Shown: in pieces, positions 1 through 18,157 of the stretch
Layout of the letters: each line of letters opens with the position of its first letter
Numbering within the stretch: position 1 is the stretch's first letter
Position numbers and translations under genes: made by a program
The notes under the pieces: model-generated
What the model was told of the DNA's origin: nothing
The model's input: only the letters and a program-made list of their open reading frames with translations
Database searches by the model: none
From: a virus
Lineage: Duplodnaviria; Heunggongvirae; Uroviricota; Caudoviricetes
Reading direction: 5' to 3' (one strand)
DNA length: 19,381 nucleotides
IMG/VR virus record: IMGVR_UViG_2861069343_000003
Span: 1 to 19,381 of that record

Positions 1-552
1 ATGCATGACAATATTTGGTTTACATATAAAGCACGTATCCAAGCGCACCATCGACTAGAATGGCTTGAAAAACACTCTCAATTTATCCTCGTTTGGTATG
101 CTATATTGAGTGCGGTACTTTCAATTGTAACGTTGCGATTTCCAAAGGTTCTAGGAGATAATACAGATATCGTTGCGGCGATACTTTCAGTGGCTCTACT
201 GGGTATTTCTCTGATCGTATCTAACCTAGATTTTCGTGGTCGAGCAATAGCTATGAGAAGGAATTATATTGCACTACAGCGACTCTATTTTGACATTACC
301 ACCAGTCAACAGTTATCTCTTGAACAGAAAGAAAAATATTTTAATTTGCTCAATGAGGTTGAGAATCACCGTGACATAGATGATAAAATTTCAAGGGTAA
401 CTCAAGTTGGACTTAAGACGAGGATCCCCACACAAAAAGAAAAAATAATTGTTATTTTATGGATATTACTTCGAATATTTATTACTGCCGCACTTTATAT
501 ACTCCCATTAATATATCTTTGGATTGACTATGACTGCAAGCAGAATTTTTAA
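1..552 (+). CDS. SLATT-like multi-TM membrane protein, putative pore-forming effector partner of the downstream reverse transcriptase (possibly 5'-partial, because the ORF begins at the window edge)
   Basis: ATG at position 1; the ORF could continue upstream. The translation shows an N-terminal amphipathic helix IWFTYKARIQAHHRLEWLEK. Two hydrophobic helices follow (aa 27-45 = nt 79-135; aa 56-76 = nt 166-228). A helix FRGRAIAMRRNYIALQRLY comes directly after TM2, and a third hydrophobic segment lies at aa 148-174 (nt 442-522). This layout matches my recollection of SLATT 2TM effector domains. The stop overlaps the RT ATG by 23 nt. The region is very AT-rich. The family call is by eye, not by HMM. 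Confidence 0.65.
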   Translation: MHDNIWFTYKARIQAHHRLEWLEKHSQFILVWYAILSAVLSIVTLRFPKVLGDNTDIVAAILSVALLGISLIVSNLDFRGRAIAMRRNYIALQRLYFDITTSQQLSLEQKEKYFNLLNEVENHRDIDDKISRVTQVGLKTRIPTQKEKIIVILWILLRIFITAALYILPLIYLWIDYDCKQNF

Positions 553-1900
553 AAAGTCATTCTCGAAAAAAAACCTTCTAAAAGTATACTCTGAAAAAAT
601 CAAAGAATCAGGAGCGATTGGCATAGATCGGATTCGCCCATCAAAACTTGATTTGACAATAAAAAATGAGATCACTTTCATTTTTGAAAAGGTTAATTCT
701 GGCAATTACAAATTTACAGCATATAAAGAAAAATTAATATCTAAAGGCGCTAACTCTACACCCAGACAGATTTCCATACCAACTGCTAGGGACAGAATTA
801 CTCTTAGAGCTCTCTGTGAATGCCTTACGGAAATATATCCTAAGTCCAGATTAAAACTACCACATACAGTAATTGACTCATTGAAAGAAGCATTAAACAA
901 CAGTCTATATGCTGAATATGCAAAAATAGATCTTAAAAGTTTCTATCCTTCAATTGAACATAAATTGATAATTAATGCAATAAAAAATAAAATTAGAAAA
1001 AAAGAAATTAGACAGTTAATAACATCATCATTAATCGTGCCTACTGTAAGTGGAACCACAGGAAGCAAAGGTATCCCTAATAATACCAGAGGAGTACCTC
1101 AGGGATTAGCGATATCAAACATTTTAGCTGAAATATCACTATCTAATTTCGATGATGAAATCAATAAAATGCATGACATATGGTACATGCGATACGTTGA
1201 TGACATTCTTATTTTAACACCAAAATATCAAGCAACAAAAATAGCTTCTCATATCATTGATAAGCTTCAATCATTAAATTTAAACCCACATCCATTAAAT
1301 GAAGAGAACTCAAAATCCAAAGTAGGCAGTTTGGATGAAAGTTTTAACTTTTTGGGATACCACATAGAAAATCGAGAATTATTGATAAAACATGAGAGCA
1401 TTCTTAGATTTGAGTCATCCTTAGCAAAAATTTTTACTGCATATAGGCACGCTCTACTACAAGCTAAAAGTAAGCGTGATAAAGAACGAGCTGTTGCATA
1501 TTGTCAGTGGAAACTAAATCTCAGAATTACGGGATGTGTGTTTGAAGGTAAACGATTGGGATGGGTATCGTACTTCTCACAAATAACCTCAACAGCTCAA
1601 CTTCGCTCTGTTAATCATACTATCAATAATCTTATCCGCCGATTCGGCCTTTCATCAGAAATAAAACCAAAATCTTTGATTAAAACTTTCTATGAACTCC
1701 GCAGAGGTAGAGCGGAGACTTTTAAATACATACCTAACTTTGACAATCTACATATATCTCAGAAACGAGAACTTGTTTCTATGTGGATAGGTAAAGAGAA
1801 GGAAAAAAAACTTAGCAATAGTGAAATAGAGAGGAAGTTTAAATTTAAAATTGCGAAATCAGTAAAAGAGCTTGAAGAGGATATTTCAGGAATATCATAG
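530..1900 (+). CDS. stand-alone reverse transcriptase (RNA-directed DNA polymerase) of UG/Abi-like or group-II-like lineage, without retron hallmarks
   Basis: The ORF track starts at TTG 524; the first ATG is at 530, preceded by GGA (521-523). Residue numbers use the track translation. Motifs: RQISIPTARDRITLRAL (81-97, motifs 1-2); AKIDLKSFYPSI (133-144, motif A, Asp136); GVPQGLAISNILAE (190-203, motif B); YMRYVDDILIL (221-231, motif C, with YVDD at nt 1193-1204); FNFLGYHI (274-281, motif 7). A thumb-like LRITGCVFEGKRLGWVSYF follows at 333-351. No endonuclease, nitrilase or long repeat extension is present. Confidence 0.93.
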   Translation: MTASRIFKKSFSKKNLLKVYSEKIKESGAIGIDRIRPSKLDLTIKNEITFIFEKVNSGNYKFTAYKEKLISKGANSTPRQISIPTARDRITLRALCECLTEIYPKSRLKLPHTVIDSLKEALNNSLYAEYAKIDLKSFYPSIEHKLIINAIKNKIRKKEIRQLITSSLIVPTVSGTTGSKGIPNNTRGVPQGLAISNILAEISLSNFDDEINKMHDIWYMRYVDDILILTPKYQATKIASHIIDKLQSLNLNPHPLNEENSKSKVGSLDESFNFLGYHIENRELLIKHESILRFESSLAKIFTAYRHALLQAKSKRDKERAVAYCQWKLNLRITGCVFEGKRLGWVSYFSQITSTAQLRSVNHTINNLIRRFGLSSEIKPKSLIKTFYELRRGRAETFKYIPNFDNLHISQKRELVSMWIGKEKEKKLSNSEIERKFKFKIAKSVKELEEDISGIS

Positions 1901-1963
1901 ATATGTAATCCATTAAGTCATTAAAATATATCGCAATAAACACACTATTTAAACTCACAAACC

Positions 1964-2004
1964 AGCCGCAGTATCCTGCCATGGCAAGTTGCTGCGGCTT
2001 TTTA
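1964..2004. terminator. bidirectional rho-independent terminator between the convergent RT operon and the prophage late genes
   Basis: 8-bp stem AGCCGCAG (1964-1971) pairs with CTGCGGCT (1992-1999), with an inner palindrome TGCCATGGCA. TTTT (2000-2003) follows on the + strand and GGTTTGTGAGTTT follows on the - strand. It coincides with the switch from AT-rich to roughly 50% GC sequence. Confidence 0.7.
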
Positions 2005-2007
2005 TGT

Positions 2008-2301
2008 TCAACGGATCAACAGCCAGATCAGAAGACACGCTACCATCGGCACAGCAAAATCCATCAGGCTTGCCACATCCCATGCGCGTGGATCAAAACC
2101 GCCCCACCACGGCATGTTAATCCGCTTGCCATGCCCGAACATTTCAATCCAGCGATATTATGCTTGGGTGTGTTCGCCCGCAATGAAGAACGTACAACTG
2201 GCTATCGCTCCGTAAACCCAGTTTCCGGTAAAAAGCCCCACCAGTATCTGCGCAGCCACAGCACAAAGTGCATGAAGGAAAGGTGTTATACCCATTTTCA
2301 T
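2008..2301 (-). pseudogene. small hydrophobic prophage membrane protein interrupted by an in-frame TAA (97 codons in total if read through)
   Basis: Hand translation of the - strand from ATG 2301 (or ATG 2295, with AGGA upstream) gives MKMGITPFLHALCAVAAQILVGLFTGNWVYGAIASCTFFIAGEHTQA. A TAA follows at 2158-2160. The same frame then continues YRWIEMFGHGKRINMPWWGGFDPRAWDVASLMDFAVPMVACLLIWLLIR to TGA at 2008-2010. Each half is under 60 aa, so neither appears in the ORF track. The + strand ORF 1981-2313 listed there is the antisense artefact. Confidence 0.55.
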
Positions 2302-2337
2302 CCTACCCAATAAAACGGGGCGCACAGCCCCTTAATA

Positions 2338-5300
2338 TTATTTAGAGGCAAGCGCCGCCTCAATTGCAGATAATCTTTGTTTTAATTCTGCGTTTTCTTC
2401 TTCCAGCGAGGTAACGCGATCATCTGTTTCACGGGCGACCTGAACAAGTAAACCCGTCACGGCGGCGTAGTCAACATTAAGATAGCGCGTTTCTTCGCGT
2501 AGCTCGTTGCCGTCAACGGTCGGGCCTTGCAACTCTTCACCGTAATGGATGAATGAACCAACGGCCTCCGGGATGGCCTCTTCAACTTCCTGGGCTATAA
2601 CCCCGGCGCAATGTGCCCCATTCTCCTTGAGCGTGTACGTGTATCCATTAATTTTGCGGATTGCGTCAGTCGCGTTATCGATAATCTCGATATTTTCTTT
2701 CAGTCTGCGGTCTGATGACTGATTCAGTGTGGTGCAGTTAACACTTCCGTTTACAGTAAGGTTTTGCCCGTCTGTTGTTTTTTGCGCATAAAACAGATAC
2801 GCAGCAGACGTGCCAACCTCAAAAACGTTTTGTCGAGTACTGGAACCCCACACCCTGATACTAACTGGTAGTTCTGAATTACCTGAATTAAGTAAAGCAA
2901 AACGATTGCCAGTCCCTGTTTGTTTTCTAATTACTAAATCGGCAGTTGAGTTAACCTCATCTTTGTTGATGGTTAGCGCCTGTGCTGTAGCACCGTTGAC
3001 AGTACCGCTTAGTAGTTGCACCGCGCCATCATCGCCATTTAACAGCACTTGAGCGCTGCTTCTGTGGTTTTTAAGGCACAACATTTTTCCCGTGTTTTTC
3101 GATGTACCTACTGACCACGCCGAATTGGTTCCAGTGCTATCAACACCGCGCACAGCACAATTCATACTACTGTAATCTGACGTACTCCCCAGCACATCAA
3201 CACGCCCGCCGCCTAATTTTGATGGAGTCGTCGAGGTTAACGACCTGACGGTTACATCCTGATTCCATCCTGAAACAACTACCTGACTCCACTCCGTCCA
3301 ACTTCCATTGACAACAAAGCGAACGTATATGCGTTTTGTGTCGCTGCCAATCAGCGTTTGCATGATCGCATAATCTGAACCCGTAGTTTTACGAGTAGAT
3401 TCTACACGTAGCAAAAAGTTACCGCTTACGCCGTCAGGCTTATTGGTAATATATGCACCACCTGCGACAGTTTTGCATTGATAGTATTTAACAGATCCAG
3501 CCACTGTATTAGCAATGATCAAGTCGTTTAAATCAATAGTCTTGTTGTCAATGGTTTCCGGCTCGATAGATCCCGCCATACCTGCGTTAAATGTGGCAAG
3601 GTCAGAAAAGGTTGTTTTACCGCCTACCGTCACCCCGCTATCGAGTTTTGCTTGTGTGATTACTTTGCTGTTTTTTGTGTGGTCAGAATAACTACCAAAA
3701 TACAAATCACCGTCACCAGCTATACCCAGGTATTTTTGATCAACATCATCAACCTTAAACCCAATGGACAAGTTTTTAATTGTGTTGTTGCTCGTTAAAA
3801 CCAAAGGCGTATGCTGAGATCCTTTGATGCTTACCGTAGTGTTATCGGAACTGGTGCTTGTGTTTGCAAATTCTGCGGTGGCTGCGCTGATTTTGTAAGT
3901 TATTTTTAGATTGCGGGCCTCAACCCTCCCGTCGTGGCGAACAATAAAATCACCACTTGATTCACCTTTTGTGTTTTTCGCCCTGATGTGGATTTCGCCA
4001 AGTGATTCGTTGTTTTCAGGCGACCAAACAACGCCGCGCTCGCTTCCGTCGTTGTTCATGAACCACAGATGAGCGGTTCCTTTTGCTGATTTTAGCCTGA
4101 TAGATGGCGTTTCTTTCAATATATCAAGATCACCAGACATAACATCGCCGGATTTTTTCACCTGCGCATCGTTCGTTACGTTGCCAAGTCCAACATCCGA
4201 TTTCGACGGCTTGTTTGCCGAGCCGTATAGCTCATTGACGCTAAAAGTCCCGTTGTTAAGCCGGGCATCGTTGCCGGCATAGATCTTAATCTTCGCGGTT
4301 GAGTAGTCGATATTGATCGCTGACCACGTATCGCCGCACCGCGAGAATATACCAGAACCGTGGCTATAAATGGTCGCCGTGCTTCCGGTCGGCCTATCAC
4401 CGCGCCAGAAATGACCACCTTTGTCACGCAGAGCTTTTAAGATCTCTACATCGCTCATCTTGCCGTTTGTTGATATCCCGCTACCGCCAAGACCGAAAGC
4501 GCCTGTAAGCATAGCATTAGAAAGACCCAAATCTGCTTTAGTCGGCTTGTTTAACTGGTCGTAAATCCTTACAACGGGGCTTTCAACATATCCAGAAGGC
4601 GCGGCGGTTTGCTTAACAAATCCGTCTGGAATGTATAATTCCGGGCGTGCCGTCTGCGCCAGTACCGCAACCTTTGCGCCGTTGATAAATGCGCGCTGGA
4701 AGGCCCAAACCTCAATAAAGCCGTCACCTTTAACCAGGCCGTAACGCATCTGGTTGTTATCGGTCAGCCCGGTTGACCCTAAGCGGCGTATACTCAGATG
4801 ACGAGAAACATTATCCGCACTAAGCAAAGAAGGCAGACCGCGCGCCGAGATCTCGATAAAGTCAATGTTTCCGTAAGGGGAGCCGTAGTTACCAGCGTTA
4901 GTAACCATTAGCGTTACATGGCAATTGCCGCTTCCGGGATCGGAAAGTTTCGCGATCTTTATGTAAAAAGACTCATTACCAGTAACAACGGGCCAATCGT
5001 ATTGCGTCATCGGGCTGACGAGTCCCCCGACCTTGTCGAGATATTCTTTCGCCTTGTTCTCTGACGCTTTAGCGTTGGTTTCGCTGACCTTTGCTGCTGC
5101 CTCACTATTTTTCGCGTTGGTTTCTGATTTTTTGGCTGCTGTCGCGGAGTTTGCCGATGCAGTTTGTGAGTCTGCTGCCGCCTGTGCGCTGTTATCCGCA
5201 TTCGTCTCAGACGTTTTTGCGGCCTTCGCGGAATTTCCTGCTGCCGTTGCCGAGGAAGCTGCACTGCCGGCGCTCGAGGCAGCGCTCGTTTCTGATGATT

Positions 5301-6039
5301 TTGCCGCCACTTTTGAAGCCGACGCATCCCGGGCTGAGGTGGCAGCTTCTGACGCTTTCGTGGTCGCGGTGGATGCAGAAGTGGCCGCAGATTTTTGTGA
5401 TGCTGCGGCATTCGTTTCTGACGTTTTCGCTGCACCGGCACTGGTGGCTGCCGCGCTTTTTGAAGACTCTGCAGCGGCAGCACTTTTTGATGCTTCAGTA
5501 GCCTTTGTTGATGCCGTTCCTGCGCTGGAAGACGCTGACTGAGCCGACGACGCGGCCTGTCCGGCTGACGTGCTGGCTGCGCGTGCGGAGTCCGCAGCAT
5601 CAGTCGCATGGGTTGCCGCCTCACGGGCTGATGTGCGGGCATCACTGGCTGACTTCTTCGCGGCTGCCGTGTTCTGTGCTACTGCGGACGCGTTACGCGC
5701 CACCTCTTCCACCATCAGTTCAAAGCGGCGCAGTGCCTCCGGACGGACATCATCCTCCGTCATGGCACCGAGAAAATCATTCAGCGTACCCGGTTGTGAG
5801 TCTTCATACACGGTGATGGTCCCGGCATGCGATGGCGGGAAGCCTTCCACCAACAGAATAACGCTGTACTGACCGTACTCAACGTCCATGCTGTAACGCC
5901 CGGCTTCATCCGGGTTTTCTGAGGCCACTGTGTTCACCACCACCGTGGTGCTGTTGCGCCTGGCCTTTAGCTGAATGGTGCAGTTTTGTATCGGCTTACC
6001 TGCGCCATCTTTCAGTACACCTGAAATCCGTACTGCCAT
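2338..6039 (-). CDS. stf: side tail fibre protein: lambda Stf-like N-terminus, divergent distal part and C-terminal S74 chaperone domain
   Basis: The N-terminal ~340 aa (MAVRISGVLKDGAGKPIQNCTIQLKARRNSTTVVVNTV...GRYSMDVEYGQYSVIL...TITVYEDSQPGTLNDFL, then the Ala/Ser-rich AAKTSETNA repeats) match lambda Stf (orf-401) as I remember it. The middle ~760 aa is beta-rich and unrelated to lambda Stf; it contains the tail-fibre motif GDVMSGDLDI. The C-terminus is an S74 domain. ATG at 6037-6039, preceded by GGGGGGA. Confidence 0.9.
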   Translation of the reverse strand: MAVRISGVLKDGAGKPIQNCTIQLKARRNSTTVVVNTVASENPDEAGRYSMDVEYGQYSVILLVEGFPPSHAGTITVYEDSQPGTLNDFLGAMTEDDVRPEALRRFELMVEEVARNASAVAQNTAAAKKSASDARTSAREAATHATDAADSARAASTSAGQAASSAQSASSSAGTASTKATEASKSAAAAESSKSAAATSAGAAKTSETNAAASQKSAATSASTATTKASEAATSARDASASKVAAKSSETSAASSAGSAASSATAAGNSAKAAKTSETNADNSAQAAADSQTASANSATAAKKSETNAKNSEAAAKVSETNAKASENKAKEYLDKVGGLVSPMTQYDWPVVTGNESFYIKIAKLSDPGSGNCHVTLMVTNAGNYGSPYGNIDFIEISARGLPSLLSADNVSRHLSIRRLGSTGLTDNNQMRYGLVKGDGFIEVWAFQRAFINGAKVAVLAQTARPELYIPDGFVKQTAAPSGYVESPVVRIYDQLNKPTKADLGLSNAMLTGAFGLGGSGISTNGKMSDVEILKALRDKGGHFWRGDRPTGSTATIYSHGSGIFSRCGDTWSAINIDYSTAKIKIYAGNDARLNNGTFSVNELYGSANKPSKSDVGLGNVTNDAQVKKSGDVMSGDLDILKETPSIRLKSAKGTAHLWFMNNDGSERGVVWSPENNESLGEIHIRAKNTKGESSGDFIVRHDGRVEARNLKITYKISAATAEFANTSTSSDNTTVSIKGSQHTPLVLTSNNTIKNLSIGFKVDDVDQKYLGIAGDGDLYFGSYSDHTKNSKVITQAKLDSGVTVGGKTTFSDLATFNAGMAGSIEPETIDNKTIDLNDLIIANTVAGSVKYYQCKTVAGGAYITNKPDGVSGNFLLRVESTRKTTGSDYAIMQTLIGSDTKRIYVRFVVNGSWTEWSQVVVSGWNQDVTVRSLTSTTPSKLGGGRVDVLGSTSDYSSMNCAVRGVDSTGTNSAWSVGTSKNTGKMLCLKNHRSSAQVLLNGDDGAVQLLSGTVNGATAQALTINKDEVNSTADLVIRKQTGTGNRFALLNSGNSELPVSIRVWGSSTRQNVFEVGTSAAYLFYAQKTTDGQNLTVNGSVNCTTLNQSSDRRLKENIEIIDNATDAIRKINGYTYTLKENGAHCAGVIAQEVEEAIPEAVGSFIHYGEELQGPTVDGNELREETRYLNVDYAAVTGLLVQVARETDDRVTSLEEENAELKQRLSAIEAALASK
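2341..2715 (-). other. intramolecular chaperone auto-processing domain (peptidase S74 type) at the tail fibre C-terminus
   Basis: The last 125 aa begin SDRRLKENIEIIDNATDAIRKINGYTYTLKENGAHCAGVIAQEVEEAIPEAV and end in a coiled-coil, LEEENAELKQRLSAIEAALASK. This is the typical S-D-x-R-x-K self-cleavage signature of endosialidase/tailspike chaperone domains. The Ser codon is at 2713-2715. Confidence 0.8.
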
Positions 6040-6050
6040 ATTCCCCCCAC

Positions 6051-6075
6051 AAAAAAACCCGCCTGAACCGGCGGG
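6051..6075 (-). terminator. rho-independent terminator downstream of lom
   Basis: The - strand reads CCCGCC-GGTTCA-GGCGGG followed by TTTTTTTG (stem 6058-6063 / 6070-6075, A-run 6051-6057 on the + strand). It lies 12 nt upstream of the stf start. Confidence 0.8.
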
Positions 6076-6103
6076 CTGTCATAACACTGTGTTACCTGGC
6101 TAA

Positions 6104-6703
6104 TCAGAATTTATAACCGACACCCACGATGAAACCGTCAGTGCGCCAGTCACCACTGCCGGAACCTTCATAAGCAATATCAATGGCCACGGATTCGGTC
6201 GGGTTAAACTGCACGCCAGCCCCCCACGCCAGAGACGTGTTGCTGTGGCGACCGTCATCACTTCCGGTCAGCACATCGTGCGTTTTCCCCTTGTTGTCAG
6301 TTACGCGGAGATAATCCCCGGAGAAAGTCGACACACGGCTGTAAGCCACACCCGCCATCGCATACGCGCTGAACCATTCATTCACGCGCACAGACGGCCC
6401 CGCCATCACGCTGAACCAGCGGTTACGCACGGAATCCTCATGCCAGCGGGTATCGCTGTAATGCGTTTTTTGCTCATCTTCAGCGTTGGCATAACTGAAT
6501 GACGTAATCAGCCCCAGCGTGTCCGTAAACTCATAACGGTATTTCACGTTAATCCCGTTCAGATTATCGCTGCCGGGAGCGTTCGTACGGGCATGAAGAT
6601 ACCCTGCGCTCAGTGTGGCCTGCTGCTCAGACGCCCATGCAGGCGCACCGGATACGGCCAGACAGATGGCTGCGGACAAAATGGCTGCACAAACTTTACG
6701 CAT
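6104..6703 (-). CDS. lom: Lom outer-membrane protein (Ail/Lom family beta-barrel), a prophage moron
   Basis: The 199-aa product MRKVCAAILSAAICLAVSGAPAWASE...SLAWGAGVQFNPTESVAIDIAYEGSGSGDWRTDGFIVGVGYKF is near-identical to lambda Lom as I recall it. It has a signal peptide ending AWA-SE and an SD GAGAGG before the ATG at 6701-6703. Confidence 0.95.
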   Translation of the reverse strand: MRKVCAAILSAAICLAVSGAPAWASEQQATLSAGYLHARTNAPGSDNLNGINVKYRYEFTDTLGLITSFSYANAEDEQKTHYSDTRWHEDSVRNRWFSVMAGPSVRVNEWFSAYAMAGVAYSRVSTFSGDYLRVTDNKGKTHDVLTGSDDGRHSNTSLAWGAGVQFNPTESVAIDIAYEGSGSGDWRTDGFIVGVGYKF

Positions 6704-6725
6704 AATTACCTCTCGCTTTTCTGCA

Positions 6726-6752
6726 ATAAAAAAGGCGCCAGAAATGGCGCCC
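6726..6752 (-). terminator. rho-independent terminator between J and lom
   Basis: The - strand reads GGCGCC-ATTTCT-GGCGCC followed by TTTTTTATT (stem 6734-6739 / 6746-6751). Confidence 0.8.
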
Positions 6753-6771
6753 GCATATGGGTTATGAAAAT

Positions 6772-9700
6772 TCAGCTAATCGTGATACCTGCTGTGGATT
6801 TCTTCATCACCACAACCAGCAAATCACTGATACTGGCTGTGGGATACCAGTCATTTACCAGCCACGCTGATACCGAAAACTCCAGCGTCATGTGACCGCG
6901 ACCAGCAGGCATATCAATAACACCTGTATAAACCAGCGTATTATCCAGCGCGGTACGGTTATAAATTTCAGCACCGTTTTTCTTCACTATCAGGCGGCAT
7001 GACGAATAAATATCGTTATTCTCCCGCTCATGTTTAGCGCCACGAAACGCCACCGCGGGAATAACAATCTGCCGGTCAAACGGCTGATCGTCATAAACCC
7101 TGACGGTAATGGTCCCTGATGGCCACCGCTCCGGTGCACGGGAGTCCCGGGGGAAAGCTTTGCCCACTGTTTTAACGAGATCGCCTTCAATCTGGTTCGC
7201 AGACAGTTTTCCCAGAACCCGACAGTTTTCATTTATCGTGACATTGTTGAGCGTCCCGGCGTTCGCATTCACACTGCCACTGATATCCGCATTTTTCGCC
7301 GTCAGTCGCCCGTCCGGTGTAAGGGAAAATACCGGAGGATTACCGCCGCTGGTAATGGTGGGAGCCGTCAGATATTTCAGGAACACTTCGTTCATGAATA
7401 TCTGATCGCCCTGACCAACAAACATCGGCTTTGTGTTGCCATTCGCAGGATTAATCATCGCAATCCTGTCTGCCGCCAGCAGCACCTGACTCTGCATGCC
7501 GTCAGGGGTGTTCTCAATACCGGCACCAATACCCGCGATATAAAGGCGTCCGTCCTGCATCTGCTGCAGCTTCACAGCCCACATGCTGTTCAGGTTATTA
7601 TTTGTATCAACCTGAACCTTCTGTATCTGCTGAATTGCCGCACTCTGGTCTTCCAGTTTCTTATTGACGGTCTGTGTGATTTCATTGCTGACATCCGTAA
7701 TGGATGTCCTGATTTCAGCCAGGTCAGGCGCAAGCTGACCGTTATCAATCTGCGTCCACAGCTCCTGAGCCAGATGGGTTTTCCCTATCTCGCCTTTGAA
7801 AAAATCCAGATAGCCGGATGCGTCATCACTCGGCTGACCAACAGCCTCCACGAATGCCGATTTGCCAACGGTGTTCACACTGCGAACGTAAAAATAATAA
7901 TTATGGCCCGGTTTGATATTGATACTGGCGGCTATCCAGTACAACGCCGTACCAAGATAGCGTGCTGTGGTTTCAACCTGCCTGATATCCGCAATCCGCT
8001 TTTCCGAGAACCAGAACTCAAACTGTACCGTCGGATCATAAACCGCAAGATGCGGCGTGGCGGTTATCTGAAAATAGCCCGGCGTCAGCTCAATCCGCGA
8101 CGGCGCTGCCGGTGCGGCAATCCGGAACGATACCGACGCCGGATCGCCCTGCTGCCCCCACGCATTTACTGCCCGGACTGTCAGCCTGTAGTTCCCCAGA
8201 GCCAGTTGTGTGAAGCGGTAAGTGGTTTCCGTCGTCCGGGCCGTGCTGACCAGCCGCTCACTGCCGTCATCCGCTGCCACGGTCAGGCGAAGCAGGAAGC
8301 TCACGCCCTTCACCACCTTCGGCGTGTCCCAGCGGGCCAGCACCTGGTATTCCCCGCTGTCTGCGGTGACTTCTGCGGTCAGATGCTGCACTGCTGGCGG
8401 CGTGACACCATTCACCGTGCCGCTCTGGTCGCCGTCAAAGTGCGCCCCGTTATCCACGATGGCCTCTTTTTCCGGTACATGCTGCACGGCAGTGATGGCA
8501 TACGTGCCGTCATCGTTCTCACGGATACTCACGCAGCGGAACAGGCGCTGGCGCAGCGTCGGCAGCTTCAGCCCCCACACGCTGTACTCGGCAACGCCGT
8601 CAGGAAGCCGGCTCACTTTCACCTTCACGCCGTCGGTGATGGACTGGACCTCCACGCTGACCGGATTGCCACTTCCGTCAACCAGGCTTATCAGCGTGGT
8701 ACCGGAGGATGGCAGCGTGATTTCACGGTCGAGCGTCAGCGTCCGGGTCTGGCTGTTCACCGCCAGCACGCGCCCGCCGGTGCTGATACCGGCATAGTCA
8801 TCATCGCAGATTTCAATGACATCGCCCGGTACATGGCGAAGCCCTTCAGCACCCACGCTGAAGTCCACGGTCTGCGTTTCCAGCAGCTCCGTTTTAATCA
8901 GCCACAGCCCGGCGCGGTGCGCCTGCCCCCGACTGGTACAGCCAAACGCATCCATCTTCGTGACGTTACGACCATAACGGGCAATGGCCTGCGAGTCCTC
9001 CACAAGCTCTGTTGCCGTCTCCCAGCCGTTATCCGGGTCAATCCAGTTCACTTCAACGGCATTATGGCGGTCTTTCAGGGCGCTGAAGCTGTAGCGGAAT
9101 GGTGCGCCATCATCCGGCATCACCACATTACTGCGGTTATAGGTCCACACCTTATCCGATGGTCGGTCCTGCACGAACGTCAGCGTCTGCCCGTTCCATA
9201 CCGGCATACAGCGCATCGCCGAGCAGAAATCACTGAGCACATCCCACGCCTTACGTTGTGTGGTCAGGTAAGCGTTACAGGTGATGCGCGGCTCCGTACC
9301 GCCAAAGCCGTCCGGCACCGACTGGTCGCAATTCTGGCCGATGACATACAGCGCCCATTTGTCCACATCCGCCGCACCGAGACGTTTCCCCATGCCGTAG
9401 CGCGGGTGGGTCAGCATATCCCACAGACACCAGGCCATGTTGTTGCTGTATGACGGTTTAAACGTCCCGTCCCAGATACCGCTGTATTGCCGCGTCTGCG
9501 GGTTATAATTCGACGGCACCTGCAGAATACGCCCGCGAAGATGATAATTACGGCTCACCTGCTGGCTGCCGAACTGCTCCGAATCCACCTGTACGCCGAC
9601 CAGTGCCGTGTTCGGGTAGCACTGTTTCACATCGATGATTTCGGTGTATGACGACCAGAGCGTTTTGTTCTGCAGCTGGTCTGTGGTGCTGTCCGGCGTC

Positions 9701-10251
9701 ATCCTGCGCATCCGGATGTTGAACGGGCGCGGCGGCAGATTATCCACCACTACCGAGGCCAGATACTGCGAGGTGGTTTTGCCCTTAATGGTGATGTCTT
9801 TTTCCGTCACCCAGCCACCGTTACGCTGTATCTGAACCAGCAGGCGGACTTCCGACGGATTCCGGTCCCCCTTTGAAGTGGTTTCCACCAGTGCCTGCAC
9901 ACCGAAGGTAAAGCGCAGACGGTCAATGTTTGCCGACGTGATGGTCCGGGTGATCGGCGTGTCGTATTTCACTTCCGTGCCCAGTACCGTCTCGGAACCT
10001 GATGATTCAAATCCCTCCGGCGGTGTCTGTTCCTGCTCACCTGCCCGGAACACCACCGTGACACCGGAGATGTTAGTATTCCCCTCACTGTCCAGCACCG
10101 GTGTACTGTTCAGCAGCACGCTTTTTAATCCATCCACCGGACCTTCAACCGGCCCTTCGCTGATGGCATCGATCACACTCAGCAACTGCGTGGACTTCAG
10201 GTTGTCCTTTGCTTCGCGCGGGGTATGCCCCTTACTGCTGCCTTTACCCAT
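6772..10251 (-). CDS. J: tail tip / host specificity protein J
   Basis: 1159 aa. The N-terminus [34 protein letters not shown] and the overall length match lambda J (1132 aa). SD GAGGA precedes the ATG at 10249-10251. Confidence 0.96.
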
Positions 10252-10270
10252 TCCTCACGCCCCATAAACG

Positions 10271-10293
10271 ATAAAACCGCCCGGAGGCGGTTT
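10271..10293 (-). terminator. terminator-like hairpin in the I-J intergenic region
   Basis: The - strand reads AAACCGCC-TCCG-GGCGGTTTTAT (stem 10276-10281 / 10286-10291). It sits inside the late operon, so Q-type antitermination probably reads through it. Confidence 0.4.
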
Positions 10294-10311
10294 CACATAA
10301 AACGTTTTTCA

Positions 10312-10953
10312 TCAGCGACCAATCACCACAACCTGACCACCGTCCCCTTCGTCTGCCGTGCTGATCTCCTGAGAAACCACGCGTGATCCCACGCGCATTT
10401 CACCGTACAGAACGGGCAGAACATTGCCCTGGGCAACCATATTATCCAGTGAAGAAAAATAGGTGTTCTGTTTGCCGTTATCCGTTGTCTGTGTGCGGGG
10501 GGTTTTGGGTTTAGGGGCCAGCATCTGTGCAACACCGCCAAGCGTCATACTGGCACCGAGAGAAAACAGCAGATTACTCGCCATAATTCCTACCCCCGGC
10601 ATCCATATAGCAACCGCCATAACAGCCGCCCCCAGCACAGCCTGAAACACACCGCCACTTTTGGCTCCTGCCAGACGCGGCACGATATGGATCACAGCAC
10701 CATTTGCCAGCGGTTCATTAAGACGGGCTGATAATTCCGTTTCACCTGTATCACGCCCGGCAATGCGTACCTGATACCAGCCGTCGCTCAGCTTCTGACG
10801 AAACGCCGGGAGCTGTGTGGCCAGTGCCCGGATGGCTTCAGCCCCCGTTTTCACACGCAGATCGATGCGGCGGCCAAATCGTTGTAAATCCCCGTAAAGG
10901 CAGATGCGCGCCATGCCCGGTGACGCCAGAGGGAGTGTGTGCGTCGCTGCCAT
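10312..10953 (-). CDS. I: tail tip assembly protein I
   Basis: The 213-aa product MAATHTLPLASPGMARICLYGDLQRFGRRIDLRVKTGAEAIRALATQLPAFRQKLSDGWYQVRIAGRD...QEISTADEGDGGQVVVIGR matches lambda I. It overlaps the end of K by 103 nt, as in lambda. Confidence 0.94.
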   Translation of the reverse strand: MAATHTLPLASPGMARICLYGDLQRFGRRIDLRVKTGAEAIRALATQLPAFRQKLSDGWYQVRIAGRDTGETELSARLNEPLANGAVIHIVPRLAGAKSGGVFQAVLGAAVMAVAIWMPGVGIMASNLLFSLGASMTLGGVAQMLAPKPKTPRTQTTDNGKQNTYFSSLDNMVAQGNVLPVLYGEMRVGSRVVSQEISTADEGDGGQVVVIGR

Positions 10954-11594
10954 TTGTCGGTATACCTCTCTCGTTTGCTCAGTTGTTCAGGAATATGGTG
11001 CAGCAGCTCGCCGTCGCCGCAGTAAATTGCGGCGTGATTCGGCACCGATGAACCAAAACAGCACAGCAGCACATCGCCCGGCTGTGCCGCTGACAACGGC
11101 ACCTGATACAGCCCCGTCGCCTCCAGATTATCCAGATAGAGATTCTGGCCGTTACGCCACCAGTCATCCTCACGATGAAAGTCCGGCATCTCAATCCCCG
11201 CCAGATGATAAGCATCCCGGAACAGTGTGTAACAGTCCGTCACACCGTGCTCAAAGCGCCGCCCGGTGAGATGCGGCACACAGCGGAACTTATGAATCGT
11301 CCCCCGGCAGACCAGCCACCACGGCAAATCACTCTGCACCTGCAGCCGCCGGTCGGCCTCACTCAGCCAGGGCAGACCACCGGGGTGGCTGTGGACCAGC
11401 GCCACAATCTCACCCTGCATTTCTGCCTGCAGCCAGTCTTCCGGCGACATACGGAAATACGCCTCCGGCTCACCGGAGATATTCACGCAGGGGAAATATC
11501 TTTCCCCCTCCGGCGTGCTTACCACGAAGCCGCACGACTCCGCTGGCGCACATCGCCGGGCGTGCGCCAGAATCGCTGATTCTGTCTGTGTCAT
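10851..11594 (-). CDS. K: tail tip assembly protein K (MPN/JAB plus NlpC/P60-like domains)
   Basis: The 247-aa ORF begins MTQTESAILAHARRCAPAESCGFVV and contains HSHPGG (JAB motif) and GVTDCYTLFRDAY (NlpC/P60 Cys), matching lambda K. The classical 199-aa lambda annotation would start at the internal MSPEDW. Confidence 0.94.
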   Translation of the reverse strand: MTQTESAILAHARRCAPAESCGFVVSTPEGERYFPCVNISGEPEAYFRMSPEDWLQAEMQGEIVALVHSHPGGLPWLSEADRRLQVQSDLPWWLVCRGTIHKFRCVPHLTGRRFEHGVTDCYTLFRDAYHLAGIEMPDFHREDDWWRNGQNLYLDNLEATGLYQVPLSAAQPGDVLLCCFGSSVPNHAAIYCGDGELLHHIPEQLSKRERYTDKWQRRTHSLWRHRAWRASAFTGIYNDLAAASICV

Positions 11595-11599
11595 GGGAT

Positions 11600-12082
11600 T
11601 TACTGCGAAAGTTTGTTAATGGAAAGGAAGCCGCCAAAGTTGCCGACGTTATTGCGGAACTTACAACCGCTCAGGCATTTGCTGCATTTATCCTTCGTGA
11701 TATCGGACGTTGGCTGGTCATATTCATCCGCGACAGCCGGACCGCTATAACCGCACTCGTCACCGCGATAGGTCCAGGTGCAGGTGTTGGCCAGCATGAT
11801 ACGTCCCGGAAAAACAGCGCCATCCGTTTCCGTCGGCGTGGACAGTACAAAGGAGGCACTCACCGCGCTCAGTTCGCTGCACTGCTCAATGCGCCAGCGG
11901 CTGATCACCTCCTGCTCCGGATCGGCATAACTGTTTCCGTTGACGAAGTTCACCGCATCCAGAAAACGGGCGTAAACATTACGCCGGACCACCGTTCCGC
12001 CGACCAGACTCTGCATATCTTCCGCCATCCCGGTGACCATACCGTACAGGTTAGAAACCGTCAGCGTGGGGCGCGTACCGCT
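11600..12082 (-). pseudogene. L: 5'-truncated minor tail protein L (about the last 160 of about 232 codons retained)
   Basis: ORF 11600-12040 (MVTGMAEDMQSLVGGTVVRR...FGGFLSINKLSQ) matches the C-terminal part of lambda L. The in-frame match continues upstream through TRPTLTVSNLYG to about 12079-12085. The frame then hits TGA at 12107-12109 and similarity is lost. No M, H, T, G, V, U or Z genes, and no head genes, follow. Confidence 0.85.
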
Positions 12083-12088
12083 CTTTTT

Positions 12089-12177
12089 ACAAAACAGAGA
12101 AGAGCATCACCGGACGACGGGCTCATAACCCAATCCATCCGGGCGGCAGTCACCGCAGGTGTTCTTCTCTGTTTTGT
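12089..12177. repeat. 89-bp unit bounded by perfect 15-bp inverted repeats, at the L truncation junction
   Basis: ACAAAACAGAGAAGA (12089-12103) is the exact reverse complement of TCTTCTCTGTTTTGT (12163-12177). The spacer is 59 bp and contains the direct repeat TCACCG twice (12107-12112 and 12150-12155). Confidence 0.8.
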
Positions 12178-12225
12178 GGAGAAACCAACCGACCTTGCAG
12201 GGTCGATATGATGGGGAGCAGCAAA

Positions 12226-12588
12226 ATGGCTAGCGAACGCAGTACTGATGTGCAGGCATTTATCGGGGAGCTGGACGGCGGCGTATTTGAAACCAAAATC
12301 GGCGCAGTTCTCAGTGAAGTCGCTTCCGGTGTGATGAACACGAAAACCAAAGGTAAGGTCTCGCTCAACCTGGAAATCGAACCGTTTGATGAGAACCGTG
12401 TGAAAATCAAACACAAACTCTCATATGTTCGCCCGACTAACCGCGGGAAAATTTCCGAAGAAGACACCACCGAAACGCCGATGTATGTCAATCGCGGTGG
12501 TCGCCTGACTATTCTGCAGGAAGACCAGGGACAATTACTGACTCTTGCCGGTGAACCTGACGGAAAACTCCGCGCAGCAGGTCATTAA
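12226..12588 (+). CDS. yfdP: YfdP-like prophage protein of unknown function
   Basis: The ORF track starts at 12208. ATG 12226 is preceded by GGGGAG (12213-12218) and gives 120 aa (MASERSTDVQAFIGELDGG...), the length I recall for K-12 YfdP. It sits immediately upstream of yfdQ, as in CPS-53. Confidence 0.6.
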   Translation: MASERSTDVQAFIGELDGGVFETKIGAVLSEVASGVMNTKTKGKVSLNLEIEPFDENRVKIKHKLSYVRPTNRGKISEEDTTETPMYVNRGGRLTILQEDQGQLLTLAGEPDGKLRAAGH

Positions 12589-12653
12589 TATCGTTCTTAA
12601 TTAACTGATTATTTATCTCATCACTGAATATCTTTATATAGTGAGGACTTATT

Positions 12654-13478
12654 ATGTCTCAGAACTTAGACGCAACCGCAATTAATCAAATCCATGCCCT
12701 TATTTCTGCTCAGGGTGTTAATGAAATTATCAGTAAAATTGGTGCCGATGCTGTGGCATTGCCTGAGAATTTCCGCATTCATGATCTGGAAAAATTTAAT
12801 TTAAATCGCTTCCGTTTCCGTGGTGCGCTTTCCACTGCCAGCATCGATGACTTTACCCGTTATTCTAAAGATCTTGCAGATGAAGGCACCCGCTGCTTTA
12901 TCGATGCTGATAATATGCGAGCCGTCAGTGTGCTTAACCTGGGTACTATTGATGAACCAGGTCACGCAGATAACACCGCCACTCTCAAACTGAAAAAGAC
13001 AGCACCGTTCTCTGCCCTGTTGTCTGTTAACGGCGAGCGTAACTCCCAGAAGTCACTGGCAGAATGGATTGAAGACTGGGCCGACTACCTTGTGGGCTTT
13101 GATGCTAATGGTGACGCCATTCAGGCAACAAAAGCGGCTGCGGCGGTCCGTAAAATCACGATTGAAGCAAACCAGACCGCTGATTTTGAAGACAATGACT
13201 TCAGCGGCAAACGCTCTCTGATGGAGTCTGTCGAAGCGAAAACCAAAGACATTATGCCAGTAGCATTTGAGTTTAAATGCGTTCCATTTGAAGGCCTGAA
13301 AGAACGTCCGTTTAAATTACGCCTCAGCATTATCACTGGTGATCGCCCTGTACTGGTTCTGCGCATTATTCAGCTGGAAGCAGTACAGGAAGAAATGGCT
13401 AACGAATTTCGTGATCTGCTTGTTGAAAAATTCAAAGACAGCAAAGTAGAAACCTTTATTGGTACTTTCACCGCCTGA
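12654..13478 (+). CDS. yfdQ: YfdQ-like prophage protein (DUF2303 family)
   Basis: 274 aa, the same length as K-12 YfdQ. SD GAGGA lies 7 nt upstream. Its position between the yfdP-like and yfdR-like genes supports the call. Confidence 0.75.
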
Positions 13479-13491
13479 TTTCATTACTGCA

Positions 13492-13514
13492 AATGCCCCT
13501 GCGGGGGCATTTAT
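13492..13514 (+). terminator. terminator-like hairpin after yfdQ (a weaker second hairpin lies at 13537-13560)
   Basis: AATGCCCC-TGC-GGGGGCATTTAT. The second hairpin is TCGCC-TGAT-GGCGA followed by GGGTTTTCTTT. Confidence 0.5.
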
Positions 13515-13605
13515 GGAAACGTAATTAACTCAATAATCGCCTGATGGCGAGGGTTTTCTTTAACCAAAATTCAGCGCGGTGCAGCGCATATACGTGGAGA
13601 ACAAA

Positions 13606-14142
13606 ATGTCATTTATTAAAACTTTTTCCGGGAAGCATTTTTATTATGACAGGATAAATAAAGACGACATCGATATTAACGATATCGCGGTTTCCCTTTC
13701 AAATATCTGTCGCTTTGCCGGTCATCTTTCGCACTTCTACAGCGTCGCCCAACATGCGGTTCTTTGCAGCCAGCTGGTGCCGCAGGAATTTGCTTTTGAA
13801 GCGTTAATGCATGATGCAACAGAAGCGTATTGCCAGGACATTCCCGCACCACTGAAACGCCTTCTTCCTGACTATAAACGGATGGAAGAAAAAATAGACG
13901 CCGTAATCCGTGAGAAATACGGGTTACCCCCGGTTATGAGCACGCCAGTGAAATATGCCGATCTCATCATGCTGGCAACCGAACGCCGCGATCTCGGACT
14001 TGATGATGGCTCTTTCTGGCCTGTACTGGAAGGTATCCCGGCAACAGAGATGTTCAAAGTGATTCCACTGGCTCCAGGCCATGCCTACGGGATGTTTATG
14101 GAACGTTTTAACGAGTTATCGGAGTTACGCAAATGCGCATGA
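13606..14142 (+). CDS. yfdR: HD-domain phosphohydrolase YfdR (5'-nucleotidase family; reported DnaA-binding prophage protein)
   Basis: The ORF track starts at GTG 13579. ATG 13606 follows GGAGA and gives 178 aa starting MSFIKTFSGKHFYYD, the length and N-terminus I recall for K-12 YfdR. HD signature residues are visible in AQHAVL and in ALMHDATEAY. Confidence 0.85.
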   Translation: MSFIKTFSGKHFYYDRINKDDIDINDIAVSLSNICRFAGHLSHFYSVAQHAVLCSQLVPQEFAFEALMHDATEAYCQDIPAPLKRLLPDYKRMEEKIDAVIREKYGLPPVMSTPVKYADLIMLATERRDLGLDDGSFWPVLEGIPATEMFKVIPLAPGHAYGMFMERFNELSELRKCA

Positions 14143-14495
14143 ATGTTTTCGAAATGGAAGGGTTTCTTCGCGGGAAATGTGTACCGCGAGATCTGAAAGT
14201 GAACGAAACAAATGCTGAGTACCTGGTACGTAAATTCGATGCGCTTGAAGCTAAATGTGCGGCACTGGAAAACAAAATAATACCAGTGTCAGCTGAACTA
14301 CCACCAGCAAATGAAAGTGTTCTGTTATTTGATGCTAACGGAGAAGGCTGGCTGATTGGCTGGCGTTCTCTCTGGTACACCTGGGGACAAAAAGAAACCG
14401 GAGAATGGCAGTGGACATTTCAGGTCGGGGACATTGAAAGCGTCAATATCACTCACTGGGCAGTAATGCCAAAAGCACCGGAGGCTGGAGCATAA
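14133..14495 (+). CDS. yfdS: YfdS-like prophage protein
   Basis: 120 aa, the same length as K-12 YfdS. The start overlaps the yfdR stop by 10 nt, with GGAG 8 nt upstream. The stop overlaps the next start (TAATG). Confidence 0.65.
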   Translation: MRMNVFEMEGFLRGKCVPRDLKVNETNAEYLVRKFDALEAKCAALENKIIPVSAELPPANESVLLFDANGEGWLIGWRSLWYTWGQKETGEWQWTFQVGDIESVNITHWAVMPKAPEAGA

Positions 14496-15115
14496 TGACC
14501 ACATTTACCGATAAAGAACTGATTAAAGAAATCAAAGAGCGTATCAGCAGCCTGGAGGTTCGAGACGATATTGAGCGCCGTGCTTATGAAATTGCTCTGG
14601 CATCGCTGGAAGAGGAGCCGGTGGCATGGCTACATTCAGACAATGGCTTAGGTATTCCAGCAATAACCAGGAGTAAAAACATTGCTGACAGTTGGTTATC
14701 AAAGGGCTGGTATGTTCAGCCGCTATATATAGCCAAGCCAGTGCCGGTGGTGCCAGATGCTCGTCCGACTTTAAATAATGGCATAGTCGGTTTTGATGAA
14801 GGCTGGAACGCCTGCCGCACCACCATGCTTCACGGTGTCAAACCTGTAAGCCAGACTTACAAGTTGAACAAGCTGTCTGACAACTCTCCGGTAACTCCGG
14901 ATGGTTGGATAAGCTGTAGTGAGCGAATGCCGAACGATAAACAATATGTTTGGTGTTGGGGTAAGTCTTACGGCTGGACTGAGTGCGATACCTTCGAAGG
15001 GTATTACGATTGTTCGAGAAACAAATGGTGGGCAGTTACTGACGATGGGGAAGAACCGGCATTGAAAGTAACCCACTGGATGCCGCTACCGGAGCCACCG
15101 CAGGAGGTGAAGTAA
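14495..15115 (+). CDS. DUF551-type prophage protein (YfdT-like, full length)
   Basis: 206 aa. The C-terminal Trp/Cys-rich part (GWISCSERMPNDKQYVWCWG...WWAVTDDGEE...VTHWMPLPEPP) resembles DUF551 as I remember it. It is coupled on both sides by TAATG overlaps. Confidence 0.6.
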   Translation: MTTFTDKELIKEIKERISSLEVRDDIERRAYEIALASLEEEPVAWLHSDNGLGIPAITRSKNIADSWLSKGWYVQPLYIAKPVPVVPDARPTLNNGIVGFDEGWNACRTTMLHGVKPVSQTYKLNKLSDNSPVTPDGWISCSERMPNDKQYVWCWGKSYGWTECDTFEGYYDCSRNKWWAVTDDGEEPALKVTHWMPLPEPPQEVK

Positions 15116-15309
15116 TGAACAACTTAATGACAACTAAACAAGTCGCCGACTTCTGTGGCGTTTCAGTATCGACAGTTCTTCGCTGGAACAGCGTAAACAG
15201 GAGAACTGGCCAGAAATATAGGCCTGACTTTCCAGATCCTGATATTAAATCCTGCCCCAATAAATGGGCATCACACAAGATATACAGGTTTGCGGGAGTT
15301 ATTGAGTAA
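15115..15309 (+). CDS. small HTH DNA-binding protein, AlpA/excisionase-like
   Basis: 64 aa. LMTTKQVADFCGVSVSTVLRWN is a typical AlpA/Xis helix-turn-helix. A strong SD AGGAGGTGA precedes it. It is the last gene of the early operon and faces the integrase end. Confidence 0.6.
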   Translation: MNNLMTTKQVADFCGVSVSTVLRWNSVNRRTGQKYRPDFPDPDIKSCPNKWASHKIYRFAGVIE

Positions 15310-15322
15310 TACGTATTAGTTC

Positions 15323-15387
15323 AGATGTGAGCTAACACATCTATGGCACAGAGCTAAACCTAATCTGACTGTCTACTCTGTGCCATA
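15323..15387. repeat. two adjacent hairpins between the convergent excisionase and 870-aa genes
   Basis: Hairpin 1: AGATGTG (15323-15329) / CACATCT (15336-15342). Hairpin 2: a perfect 12-bp stem TATGGCACAGAG (15342-15353) / CTCTGTGCCATA (15376-15387) with a 22-nt loop. Neither is followed by a U-tract in either direction. Confidence 0.7.
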
Positions 15388-15442
15388 AGTGGATGTTAAT
15401 TACTTCTTGGTATTTTAATGGTTGGATAGCTTATCAAGATTA

Positions 15443-18049: not shown

Positions 18050-18081
18050 TTTCACCTCGTGTATTATTCGATAAAGATCAC

Positions 18082-18110
18082 ATTGTACGTGATATCAACT
18101 ACTTGCTCAA
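18082..18110 (-). promoter_or_regulatory. candidate sigma70 promoter for the 870-aa gene
   Basis: On the - strand: -35 TTGAGC (18110-18105), a 17-nt spacer, then -10 TACAAT (18087-18082). It lies about 30 nt upstream of the SD and ATG. A short inverted repeat ATCAC/GTGAT (18077-18081 / 18089-18093) brackets the -10. This is a motif-only prediction. Confidence 0.45.
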
Positions 18111-18157
18111 AGCAGATCGTCATATCCTATTGCGTTCTAGCTACGTAAACTATCCTA

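Follow-up and report, generated by a model that had tools for sequence, protein, structure and literature searches.

What kind of system is encoded by the compact reverse transcriptase (RT) gene and the overlapping membrane protein gene that open the viral record IMGVR_UViG_2861069343_000003, and has such a pairing been characterized before? The whole stretch of DNA analyzed here (19,381 nt, positions 1 to 19,381 of the record) is referred to as the window, and positions are those of the window unless another sequence is named. A reading made from the letters alone (the sequence-only reading) had proposed a likely RT-based abortive-infection module whose membrane protein is gated by RT activity or its DNA product, and had left the second question unanswered. 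Our analysis leaves little doubt that the two genes make up the protein portion of an anti-phage system of the DRT10 type (UG17, subtype A), for which a lambdoid prophage remnant serves as the carrier. The pairing has indeed been characterized, since the window allele is near-identical to Eco3DRT10 of E. coli 703491, the best-studied DRT10 homolog. The window is 100% identical to positions 839347-858727 of the E. coli AR437 chromosome, and this AR437 locus (L001, in which position 6001 corresponds to window nt 1) was used for upstream sequence. Annotation of the two proteins alone under-describes the system, because the window starts downstream of an essential non-coding RNA (ncRNA), the third component described below.

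The RT gene (530 to 1900, plus strand; stop codon at 1898-1900) encodes 456 aa from the ATG at 530, or 458 aa if translation starts at a TTG at 524. Its product matched the PADLOC model RT_UG17 end to end (profile positions 1-429 of 429) with 526.5 bits (E = 1.2e-158), while the runner-up PADLOC model was Drt3a (127 bits), with Drt2 also among the next-best profiles. Pfam RVT_1 was matched by aa 74-281 (75 bits). An identity as DRT2, DRT3 or DRT4 was rejected because the NCBIfam equivalog scores were far under the respective cut-offs (Drt3a, 112.6 versus 200; Drt2, 76.1 versus 390; Drt4, 26.3 versus 450). The YVDD catalytic box (aa 222-225, 1193 to 1204, plus strand), the predicted protein-priming residue Ser456 at the C-terminus (codon at 1895 to 1897, plus strand) as well as R371, K385 and Y388 are all present in the window RT and are invariant in 22 homologs of 59-84% identity. 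In Eco3DRT10, mutating the catalytic residues of the RT led to loss of defense and S456A to loss of both complementary DNA (cDNA) synthesis and defense (PMC12632851), while R371, K385 and Y388 are its essential RNA-anchoring residues (10.64898/2026.06.29.735271). The annotated Eco3DRT10 RT, OKX54664, has two additional N-terminal residues, and its S458 is hence S456 in the shorter count (PMC12632851); this annotation difference is the same TTG-524/ATG-530 start ambiguity found in the window. For the protein comparison Table S1 of PMC12632851 was used, in which 397 RT residues of Eco3DRT10 are printed. Five of these 397 residues differ in the window RT, and near-identical RTs appear in that table as UG17 loci.

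The gene upstream of the RT (1 to 552, plus strand) encodes a 183-aa SLATT_5 family protein, the SLATT component of DRT10. It scored well above the curated cut-offs of Pfam SLATT_5 PF18160 (99.7 bits versus 29.5) and NCBIfam SLATT_5 NF033631 (136 bits versus 60), and it matched PADLOC RTasSLATT PDLC03819 with 189 bits. Two N-proximal transmembrane helices (aa 25-48 and 54-79; 73 to 237, plus strand), with Kyte-Doolittle means in 19-aa windows of up to 2.09 and 2.37, lie inside the SLATT_5 profile match, and a C-terminal hydrophobic segment (aa 146-177; 436 to 531, plus strand) reaches a mean of 2.63. SLATT genuinely starts with the ATG at window nt 1, since in AR437 an in-frame TAA is located 13-15 nt upstream with no intervening start codon and a Shine-Dalgarno sequence, AAGGA, lies 7-11 nt upstream. 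Only 4 of the 183 residues differ from the Eco3DRT10 SLATT. The sequence-only reading had described a 183-aa SLATT-like membrane protein followed by an RT of about 456 aa with a YVDD box, and both descriptions hold; the aspartates it numbered D226/D227, in the 458-aa count from TTG 524, are D224/D225 in the 456-aa form. The checks it had proposed with PADLOC, with a SLATT profile search and with an extension upstream for the start, promoter and ncRNA all gave positive results.

The combination of a full-length UG17 RT match with an RTasSLATT partner leads to the DRT10 assignment, because a UG17 RT with SLATT constitutes DRT10. This combination was catalogued as a predicted defense pair by Mestre et al. 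2022 (PMC9226505), and DRT10 was subsequently characterized by Tang et al. 2025 (PMC12632851), Sanchez-Nieto et al. 2026 (10.64898/2026.04.29.721553) and Ramirez et al. 2026 (10.64898/2026.06.29.735271) as a tripartite system that makes protein-primed, telomerase-like tandem-repeat single-stranded DNA (ssDNA). In published plaque assays, defense depended on the catalytic residues of the RT, on the SLATT gene and on the ncRNA (PMC12632851; 10.64898/2026.04.29.721553).

The RT ATG at 530 precedes the end of the SLATT stop codon at 552, so that the genes share 23 nt (530 to 552, plus strand) in an overlap that is not of the ATGA type and through which SLATT and RT are probably translationally coupled. 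An overlapping SLATT/RT arrangement has likewise been described for UG17-A (10.64898/2026.04.29.721553), and a stop/start overlap of 1-23 nt was found in 27 of 27 gamma- and beta-proteobacterial loci from other species (L007-L032 and L047). Of a total of 44 loci from other species, gathered by RT alignment and contig scan, 42 have SLATT as the gene immediately preceding the RT, and this adjacency extends to RTs of 31% identity. The two genes occupy an AT-rich block (GC 0.31-0.36 across 1-2000, versus 0.43-0.62 in the tail-gene region 2001-12500) that is closed by an intrinsic-terminator-like hairpin with a T-run (1964 to 2003, plus strand). The hairpin itself (1964-1999) folds at -21.3 kcal/mol (z = -3.29; none of 200 shuffles was equally stable) and is followed by the T-run to 2003; a simple terminator scan did not report this site, as its loop exceeds the limit of that scan, and it was found by direct folding. 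The overlap of the SLATT stop with the RT start and the AT-rich block with its terminator had both been pointed out from the sequence beforehand.

The ncRNA lies outside the window, at -155 to -19 relative to nt 1 (L001 5846-5982, approximately 137 nt), within the 222-nt spacer that separates a DinI-like gene from SLATT in AR437. It is preceded by a promoter at L001 5810-5839 (window-relative -191 to -162) that reads TTGACT-18-AATAAT and carries a TG extension, and the promoter scan of L001 revealed no sigma-70-like site between this promoter and SLATT. With no separate promoter ahead of SLATT, the SLATT-RT mRNA probably arises by read-through from the ncRNA promoter. The fold of the ncRNA (-57.2 kcal/mol, z = -4.95) comprises a basal stem (stem-loop SL1) and four small stem-loops (SL2-SL5), with the template located in a single-stranded loop that separates SL5 from SL1; a structured ncRNA of approximately 137-143 nt upstream of SLATT is what is expected of DRT10. 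As close E. coli alleles are too uniform to test this structure, distant loci were needed, and the regions upstream of SLATT from 25 loci ranging from E. coli to Bordetella were aligned with MAFFT without fitting to a structure. RNAalifold recovered five helices on this alignment, with compensatory double changes in 17 of 34 pairs; 97.9% of cells were paired, compared with 48-57% when the partners were slid by 1-3 columns, and none of 500 shuffles reached the observed covariation score. When L001 5846 is taken as nt 1, the numbering of the near-identical Eco3DRT10 complex, for which cryo-EM provides the reference (10.64898/2026.06.29.735271), is reproduced: G86, G104 at the base of SL5, the linker U105-U106, the template from C107, a second linker A120-U123 (AUAU) and the 3' strand of SL1 from C124. 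Searches of Rfam at E <= 1 over L001 5300-8400 matched no curated family, the DRT10 ncRNA included, apart from one chance miRNA match (E = 0.3), and at gathering thresholds no family of any kind was found in the whole window. The sequence-only reading, which had asked for an upstream extension, did not include this third essential part, as it is located outside the window.

Two observations concern the sequence around the ncRNA. In L002 and L005 (3069-3773), which represent the approximately 95%-identity alleles of MS6193 and SCAID, one base change abolishes the TAA upstream of the SLATT start, and a spurious 234-aa open reading frame (ORF) consequently spans the entire ncRNA; this ORF could lead gene callers astray and hide the ncRNA. 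Upstream, the DinI-like gene of L001 has a TTGACA/AAAAAT promoter followed by a LexA-box-like CTGTATACAAATACAG (L001 5466-5520), and no terminator-like site was detected from the DinI-like stop codon to the ncRNA promoter (L001 5778-5810). Because of these two features, it is conceivable that SOS-induced transcripts of the DinI-like gene continue into the DRT10 cassette.

The template loop of the window allele reads CAAC-GGUUC-CAAU, an A-B-A' arrangement at ncRNA nt 107-119, and a (U)CAA...(U)CAA pattern occupies the equivalent position in most of the 25 aligned loci. The number of loci with an A-B-A' pattern was not used by itself, since repeats of at least 3 nt are common by chance in a 26-nt loop. 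A calibration is provided by the CE10 allele, whose RT is identical to that of Eco3 over the 397 aa and whose loop is CAAU-GAUUC-CAAU: an automated A-B-A' search on CE10 returned CAAT-GATTC-CAAT as the longest pattern, corresponding to a cDNA unit of GAATCATTG, and GAATCATTG is the repeat measured for Eco3DRT10 (PMC12632851; 10.64898/2026.06.29.735271). The window loop differs from the Eco3 loop by two substitutions, U110C and A112G. In the Eco3DRT10 structure the template boundary is at C107, two linker nucleotides after the SL5 anchor (10.64898/2026.06.29.735271), and with the boundary fixed there the window template predicts (GAACCGTTG)n as the cDNA product. Upon realignment, the cDNA 3' end GTTG would pair with CAAU, using one dG-rU wobble in addition to three Watson-Crick pairs, which is consistent with the published observations that in Eco3DRT10 the fourth A/A' position tolerates change and 3 nt of homology are required (PMC12632851). 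In addition to the profile matches, the assignment to DRT10 is thus carried by the near-identity to Eco3DRT10, the CE10 template match, the ncRNA structure, the conserved priming and anchoring residues and the synteny; a UG17 RT, an overlapping SLATT_5 gene, a structured ncRNA and an A-B-A' template are all found together at this locus.

The genomic surroundings identify the carrier. The window corresponds to a lambdoid prophage remnant of approximately 20 kb with prfC on one side and yjjG on the other. The gene order of the element is DinI-like gene, ncRNA, SLATT, RT, a small pseudogene, tail fiber, Lom, J, I and K, followed by a truncated L, yfdP-yfdR, two DUF551 genes, an 870-aa protein with a double-stranded RNA-binding domain and an HNH domain, and the integrase. 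The sequence-only reading had placed the cassette just beyond the tail-fiber end of the prophage, which was not borne out: the cassette sits between the tail-fiber genes and the DinI-like gene abutting prfC and is cargo inside the prophage end, on its tail-fiber/DinI side. In other strains the DinI-ncRNA-SLATT-RT block adjoins different tail-fiber modules, and it also occurs at a yecD/aspS site, so that the E. coli cassette is found as prophage cargo between tail-fiber and DinI-like genes at no fewer than two attachment sites. It is carried by 187 of 5426 complete E. coli genomes and is chromosomal in all of them. When the cassette was searched by megablast against 50,697 phage records, no match was obtained, and its description as prophage cargo is consequently drawn from chromosomal context only.

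Based on these findings and on the published work, the following course of events is proposed for the window system. The sigma-70 promoter approximately 190 nt upstream of nt 1 would drive the structured ncRNA of approximately 137 nt, which is established here through its sequence, fold and covariation, while SLATT and RT would be translated from read-through transcripts, with the RT start 23 nt inside the SLATT frame. Two RT monomers would bind one ncRNA and prime synthesis from the hydroxyl of the C-terminal Ser456, as was shown for Eco3DRT10, whose residues are conserved here and whose complex consists of two RTs and one pseudo-symmetric ncRNA (10.64898/2026.06.29.735271). Following the course established for Eco3DRT10, the RT would copy C107-C115 and stop where the distance from the SL5 anchor sets the boundary, the 3' end of the nascent DNA would re-anneal to the A' copy C116-U119, and telomerase-like repetition of this cycle would result in kilobase-long tandem-repeat ssDNA covalently attached to the RT; for the window allele this product would be (GAACCGTTG)n, realigned through the wobble described above. 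According to results with the UG17-A homolog, the cDNA would be made constitutively, and host ExoI/SbcB as well as phage ssDNA-binding-like proteins would alter its level or form upon infection. The changed cDNA state may then activate SLATT and halt phage propagation, probably through membrane damage, as proposed in the literature. Both experimental groups proposed that the repeat cDNA controls SLATT (PMC12632851; 10.64898/2026.04.29.721553), and together with the UG17-SLATT identity and the plaque assays these proposals support the earlier suggestion of an RT-based defense module in which the RT or its DNA product gates SLATT. The abortive-infection part of that suggestion has the standing of a proposal in the literature: it was raised as a possibility by Tang et al. 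(PMC12632851), and the wording is absent from the main text of Sanchez-Nieto et al. (10.64898/2026.04.29.721553).

Five points weigh against this reading of the locus. The three mechanistic sources on DRT10 are all preprints. For the window allele itself, defense dependent on RT, SLATT and ncRNA as well as tandem-repeat cDNA synthesis are extrapolated from an approximately 99% identical homolog. The prophage is decayed, with L truncated and head genes absent, and expression of the cassette in this setting is a prediction. In the window loop there is, in addition, another A-B-A' pattern, GUUC-AACG-GUUC, whose period is 8 (unit CGTTGAAC) and which may lower the precision of the predicted repeat. 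Finally, the two experimental papers conflict on the direction of the cDNA change, and this standing conflict weakens the SLATT-gating step. The 8-nt register, although preferred by the automated search, was rejected as the main prediction because it needs read-through past the SL5-anchored boundary into the linker and because (U)CAA...(U)CAA is the register conserved across species.

The conflict over cDNA direction leads to the alternative that fares best, which assigns the same DRT10 parts an antitoxin-like logic: constitutive cDNA would restrain a toxic SLATT, and infection would lower the cDNA and free SLATT. This was proposed by Tang et al. because the cDNA of Eco3DRT10, the closest characterized relative of the window system, was reduced after Bas18 infection (PMC12632851). 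In the UG17-A homolog, however, first-strand cDNA increased upon infection, from which its accumulation was suggested to activate SLATT, and loss of SbcB, which permits more cDNA, raised toxicity instead of relieving it (10.64898/2026.04.29.721553), while an earlier screen had already found that the RT renders sbcB essential (PMC9226505). The SbcB toxicity results and the essentiality screen suggest that the toxic or activating signal is provided by the RT product. Activation of SLATT by cDNA accumulation is favored here because loss of SbcB was toxic only in the presence of the system (PMC9226505; 10.64898/2026.04.29.721553), and we regard the antitoxin-like logic as possible but the less probable of the two, with perhaps a minority chance of being correct.

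Far less probable is that the DRT10 cassette is an inert leftover of a prophage in decay, its seemingly intact genes having lost expression or function in this strain. Head and lysis genes are missing from the element, its L gene is truncated, and in at least one carrier (strain 510016) the SLATT gene contains an IS1. On the other hand, the ORFs, promoter, ncRNA helices, template and all known essential residues are intact in the window allele, many unrelated isolates share the sequence with 100% identity, and in the 187 carriers the cassette is located at two or more attachment sites, so we consider a relic very unlikely. The insertion in strain 510016 (H34, NZ_CP025851.1, 3287963-3290950) is an IS1A inside the SLATT gene, which is annotated there as two SLATT fragments; a natural effector knockout of this kind is in keeping with SLATT-dependent toxicity.

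That the RT should instead be placed in a mobile class or another one (group II intron, retron, Abi-type or CRISPR-associated), with SLATT as a chance neighbor, can be dismissed as negligibly probable, since the similarities in its favor are weak and far under the curated cut-offs (group II RT/maturase TIGR04416, 144 bits versus 300; Pfam GIIM, 14.5 versus 23; retron St85 RT model, 58.7 versus 235) as opposed to the end-to-end RT_UG17 match, the described intron ribozyme or retron RNA families that would be expected were missing from the Rfam results at both thresholds, and the adjacency of SLATT and RT persists in the distant loci described above. A group II intron RT/maturase, the outcome that the sequence-only reading had named as fatal to its proposal if ribozyme domains flanked the gene, was rejected on the TIGR04416, GIIM and Rfam results, and a retron on the St85 and Rfam results together with the DRT10 architecture of the upstream ncRNA.

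With the system itself already known, the residual novelty of the DRT10 locus in the window lies in a natural template polymorphism. The template is of the window type in 153 of the 187 E. coli carriers and of the Eco3 type in the other 34, so that the allele most frequent in E. coli differs from the studied one at two positions and is predicted to make (GAACCGTTG)n with a wobble at realignment. That the two alleles make different repeat DNAs and that the polymorphism matters functionally is a speculation to which we attach a low probability. If it were correct, phage range, the SLATT activation threshold or escape from a phage factor that recognizes the repeat might be affected, and the repeat sequence would be a tunable specificity determinant instead of a neutral feature. 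As a lesser variant, the GUUC-AACG-GUUC register may make the product of the window allele a mixture of 8- and 9-nt periods.

The remainder of the window contains several features that touch on the prophage and not on the DRT10 cassette. A small ORF on the minus strand (2008-2295) between the RT terminator and the tail-fiber gene is a pseudogene here with an internal stop, and its counterpart in CE10 and CT265 is a hypothetical protein of 95 aa that is intact. As a tail-fiber assembly gene replaces it in other strains, the small ORF is apparently not a DRT10 component. The tail-fiber gene (2338-6039, minus strand) is a single unbroken ORF of 1233 aa with an Ala/Ser-rich repeat region, whereas in RefSeq the identical AR437 sequence is annotated as an S74-peptidase/pyocin-knob protein of shorter length together with a partial pseudogene of the N-terminal part. 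The lambda-like tail genes stop at the truncated L (11600-12100), which is fused straight to CPS-53-like early genes (12000-15200) comprising yfdP, yfdQ, yfdR and the two DUF551 genes. Head, lysis and replication modules were all absent from this mosaic remnant. Just 15 genomes contain 80% or more of the region 12000-19381. Directly adjoining the prophage integrase, a second AT-rich block (GC 0.31-0.35) contains the gene for the 870-aa protein (15443-18055, minus strand), in which dsrm (aa 144-210, 41 bits) and HNH_2 nuclease (aa 773-822, 51 bits) domains were recognized while the remainder is without a recognized domain. PADLOC returned for this protein weak generic HNH matches only, and NCBIfam only sub-threshold matches to RNase III (double-stranded RNA-binding domain) and PT-DNA restriction models; it may be a second, uncharacterized defense cargo gene.

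The interest of DRT10 is that of a minimal bacterial telomerase-like RT feeding a membrane effector, which was discovered and dissected on a homolog approximately 99% identical to the window allele. This homolog, Eco3DRT10 (RT OKX54664; PMC12632851; 10.64898/2026.06.29.735271), shares with the window the ncRNA-SLATT-RT operon, the 456/458-aa RT geometry with its TTG/ATG ambiguity, the residues S456, YVDD, R371, K385 and Y388, and the ncRNA numbering (G86, G104, U105-U106, C107 to U119 and A120-U123). It differs in the template, CAAU-GAUUC-CAAU with the repeat GAATCATTG as opposed to CAAC-GGUUC-CAAU with the predicted repeat GAACCGTTG, and its A/A' homology is 4 nt, whereas that of the window allele is 3 nt plus the wobble. 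The UG17-A DRT10 of Escherichia sp. E3659 (10.64898/2026.04.29.721553) likewise has an independently transcribed ncRNA of approximately 140 nt, a SLATT_5 gene and an overlapping RT, and all three components are required for its defense, but its repeat is 7 nt, its ncRNA was modeled with six stem-loops and its SLATT/RT overlap is 1 nt compared with 23 nt in the window.

Among the other systems, DRT9 (UG28), DRT2 (UG2) and DRT3 (UG3+UG8) of the class 2 UG/Abi RTs resemble DRT10 in combining a compact RT with a dedicated ncRNA that templates repetitive cDNA, and DRT9 is also protein-primed with an ncRNA of similar shape (PMC12632851). Their products, poly-dA in DRT9, a concatenated gene in DRT2 and poly(dTdG) in DRT3, differ from the DRT10 repeat, and in contrast to these systems SLATT is the effector and not an accessory in DRT10 (PMC9226505). 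SLATT effectors of CBASS and other nucleotide-signaling systems belong to the same two-transmembrane-helix SLATT superfamily and are predicted to perturb membranes; they are controlled by cyclic oligonucleotides or SMODS/SLOG partners, while in DRT10 the place of these partners is taken by an RT, with long repeat ssDNA as the presumed signal. With telomerase (TERT and telomerase RNA), DRT10 shares the repeated copying of a short internal template, a realignment flank and a structural boundary (PMC12632851). According to published descriptions, however, TERT extends the 3' end of chromosomal DNA, is approximately 2.5 times larger and acts as a monomer, whereas DRT10 primes from its own serine and employs two RTs per RNA.

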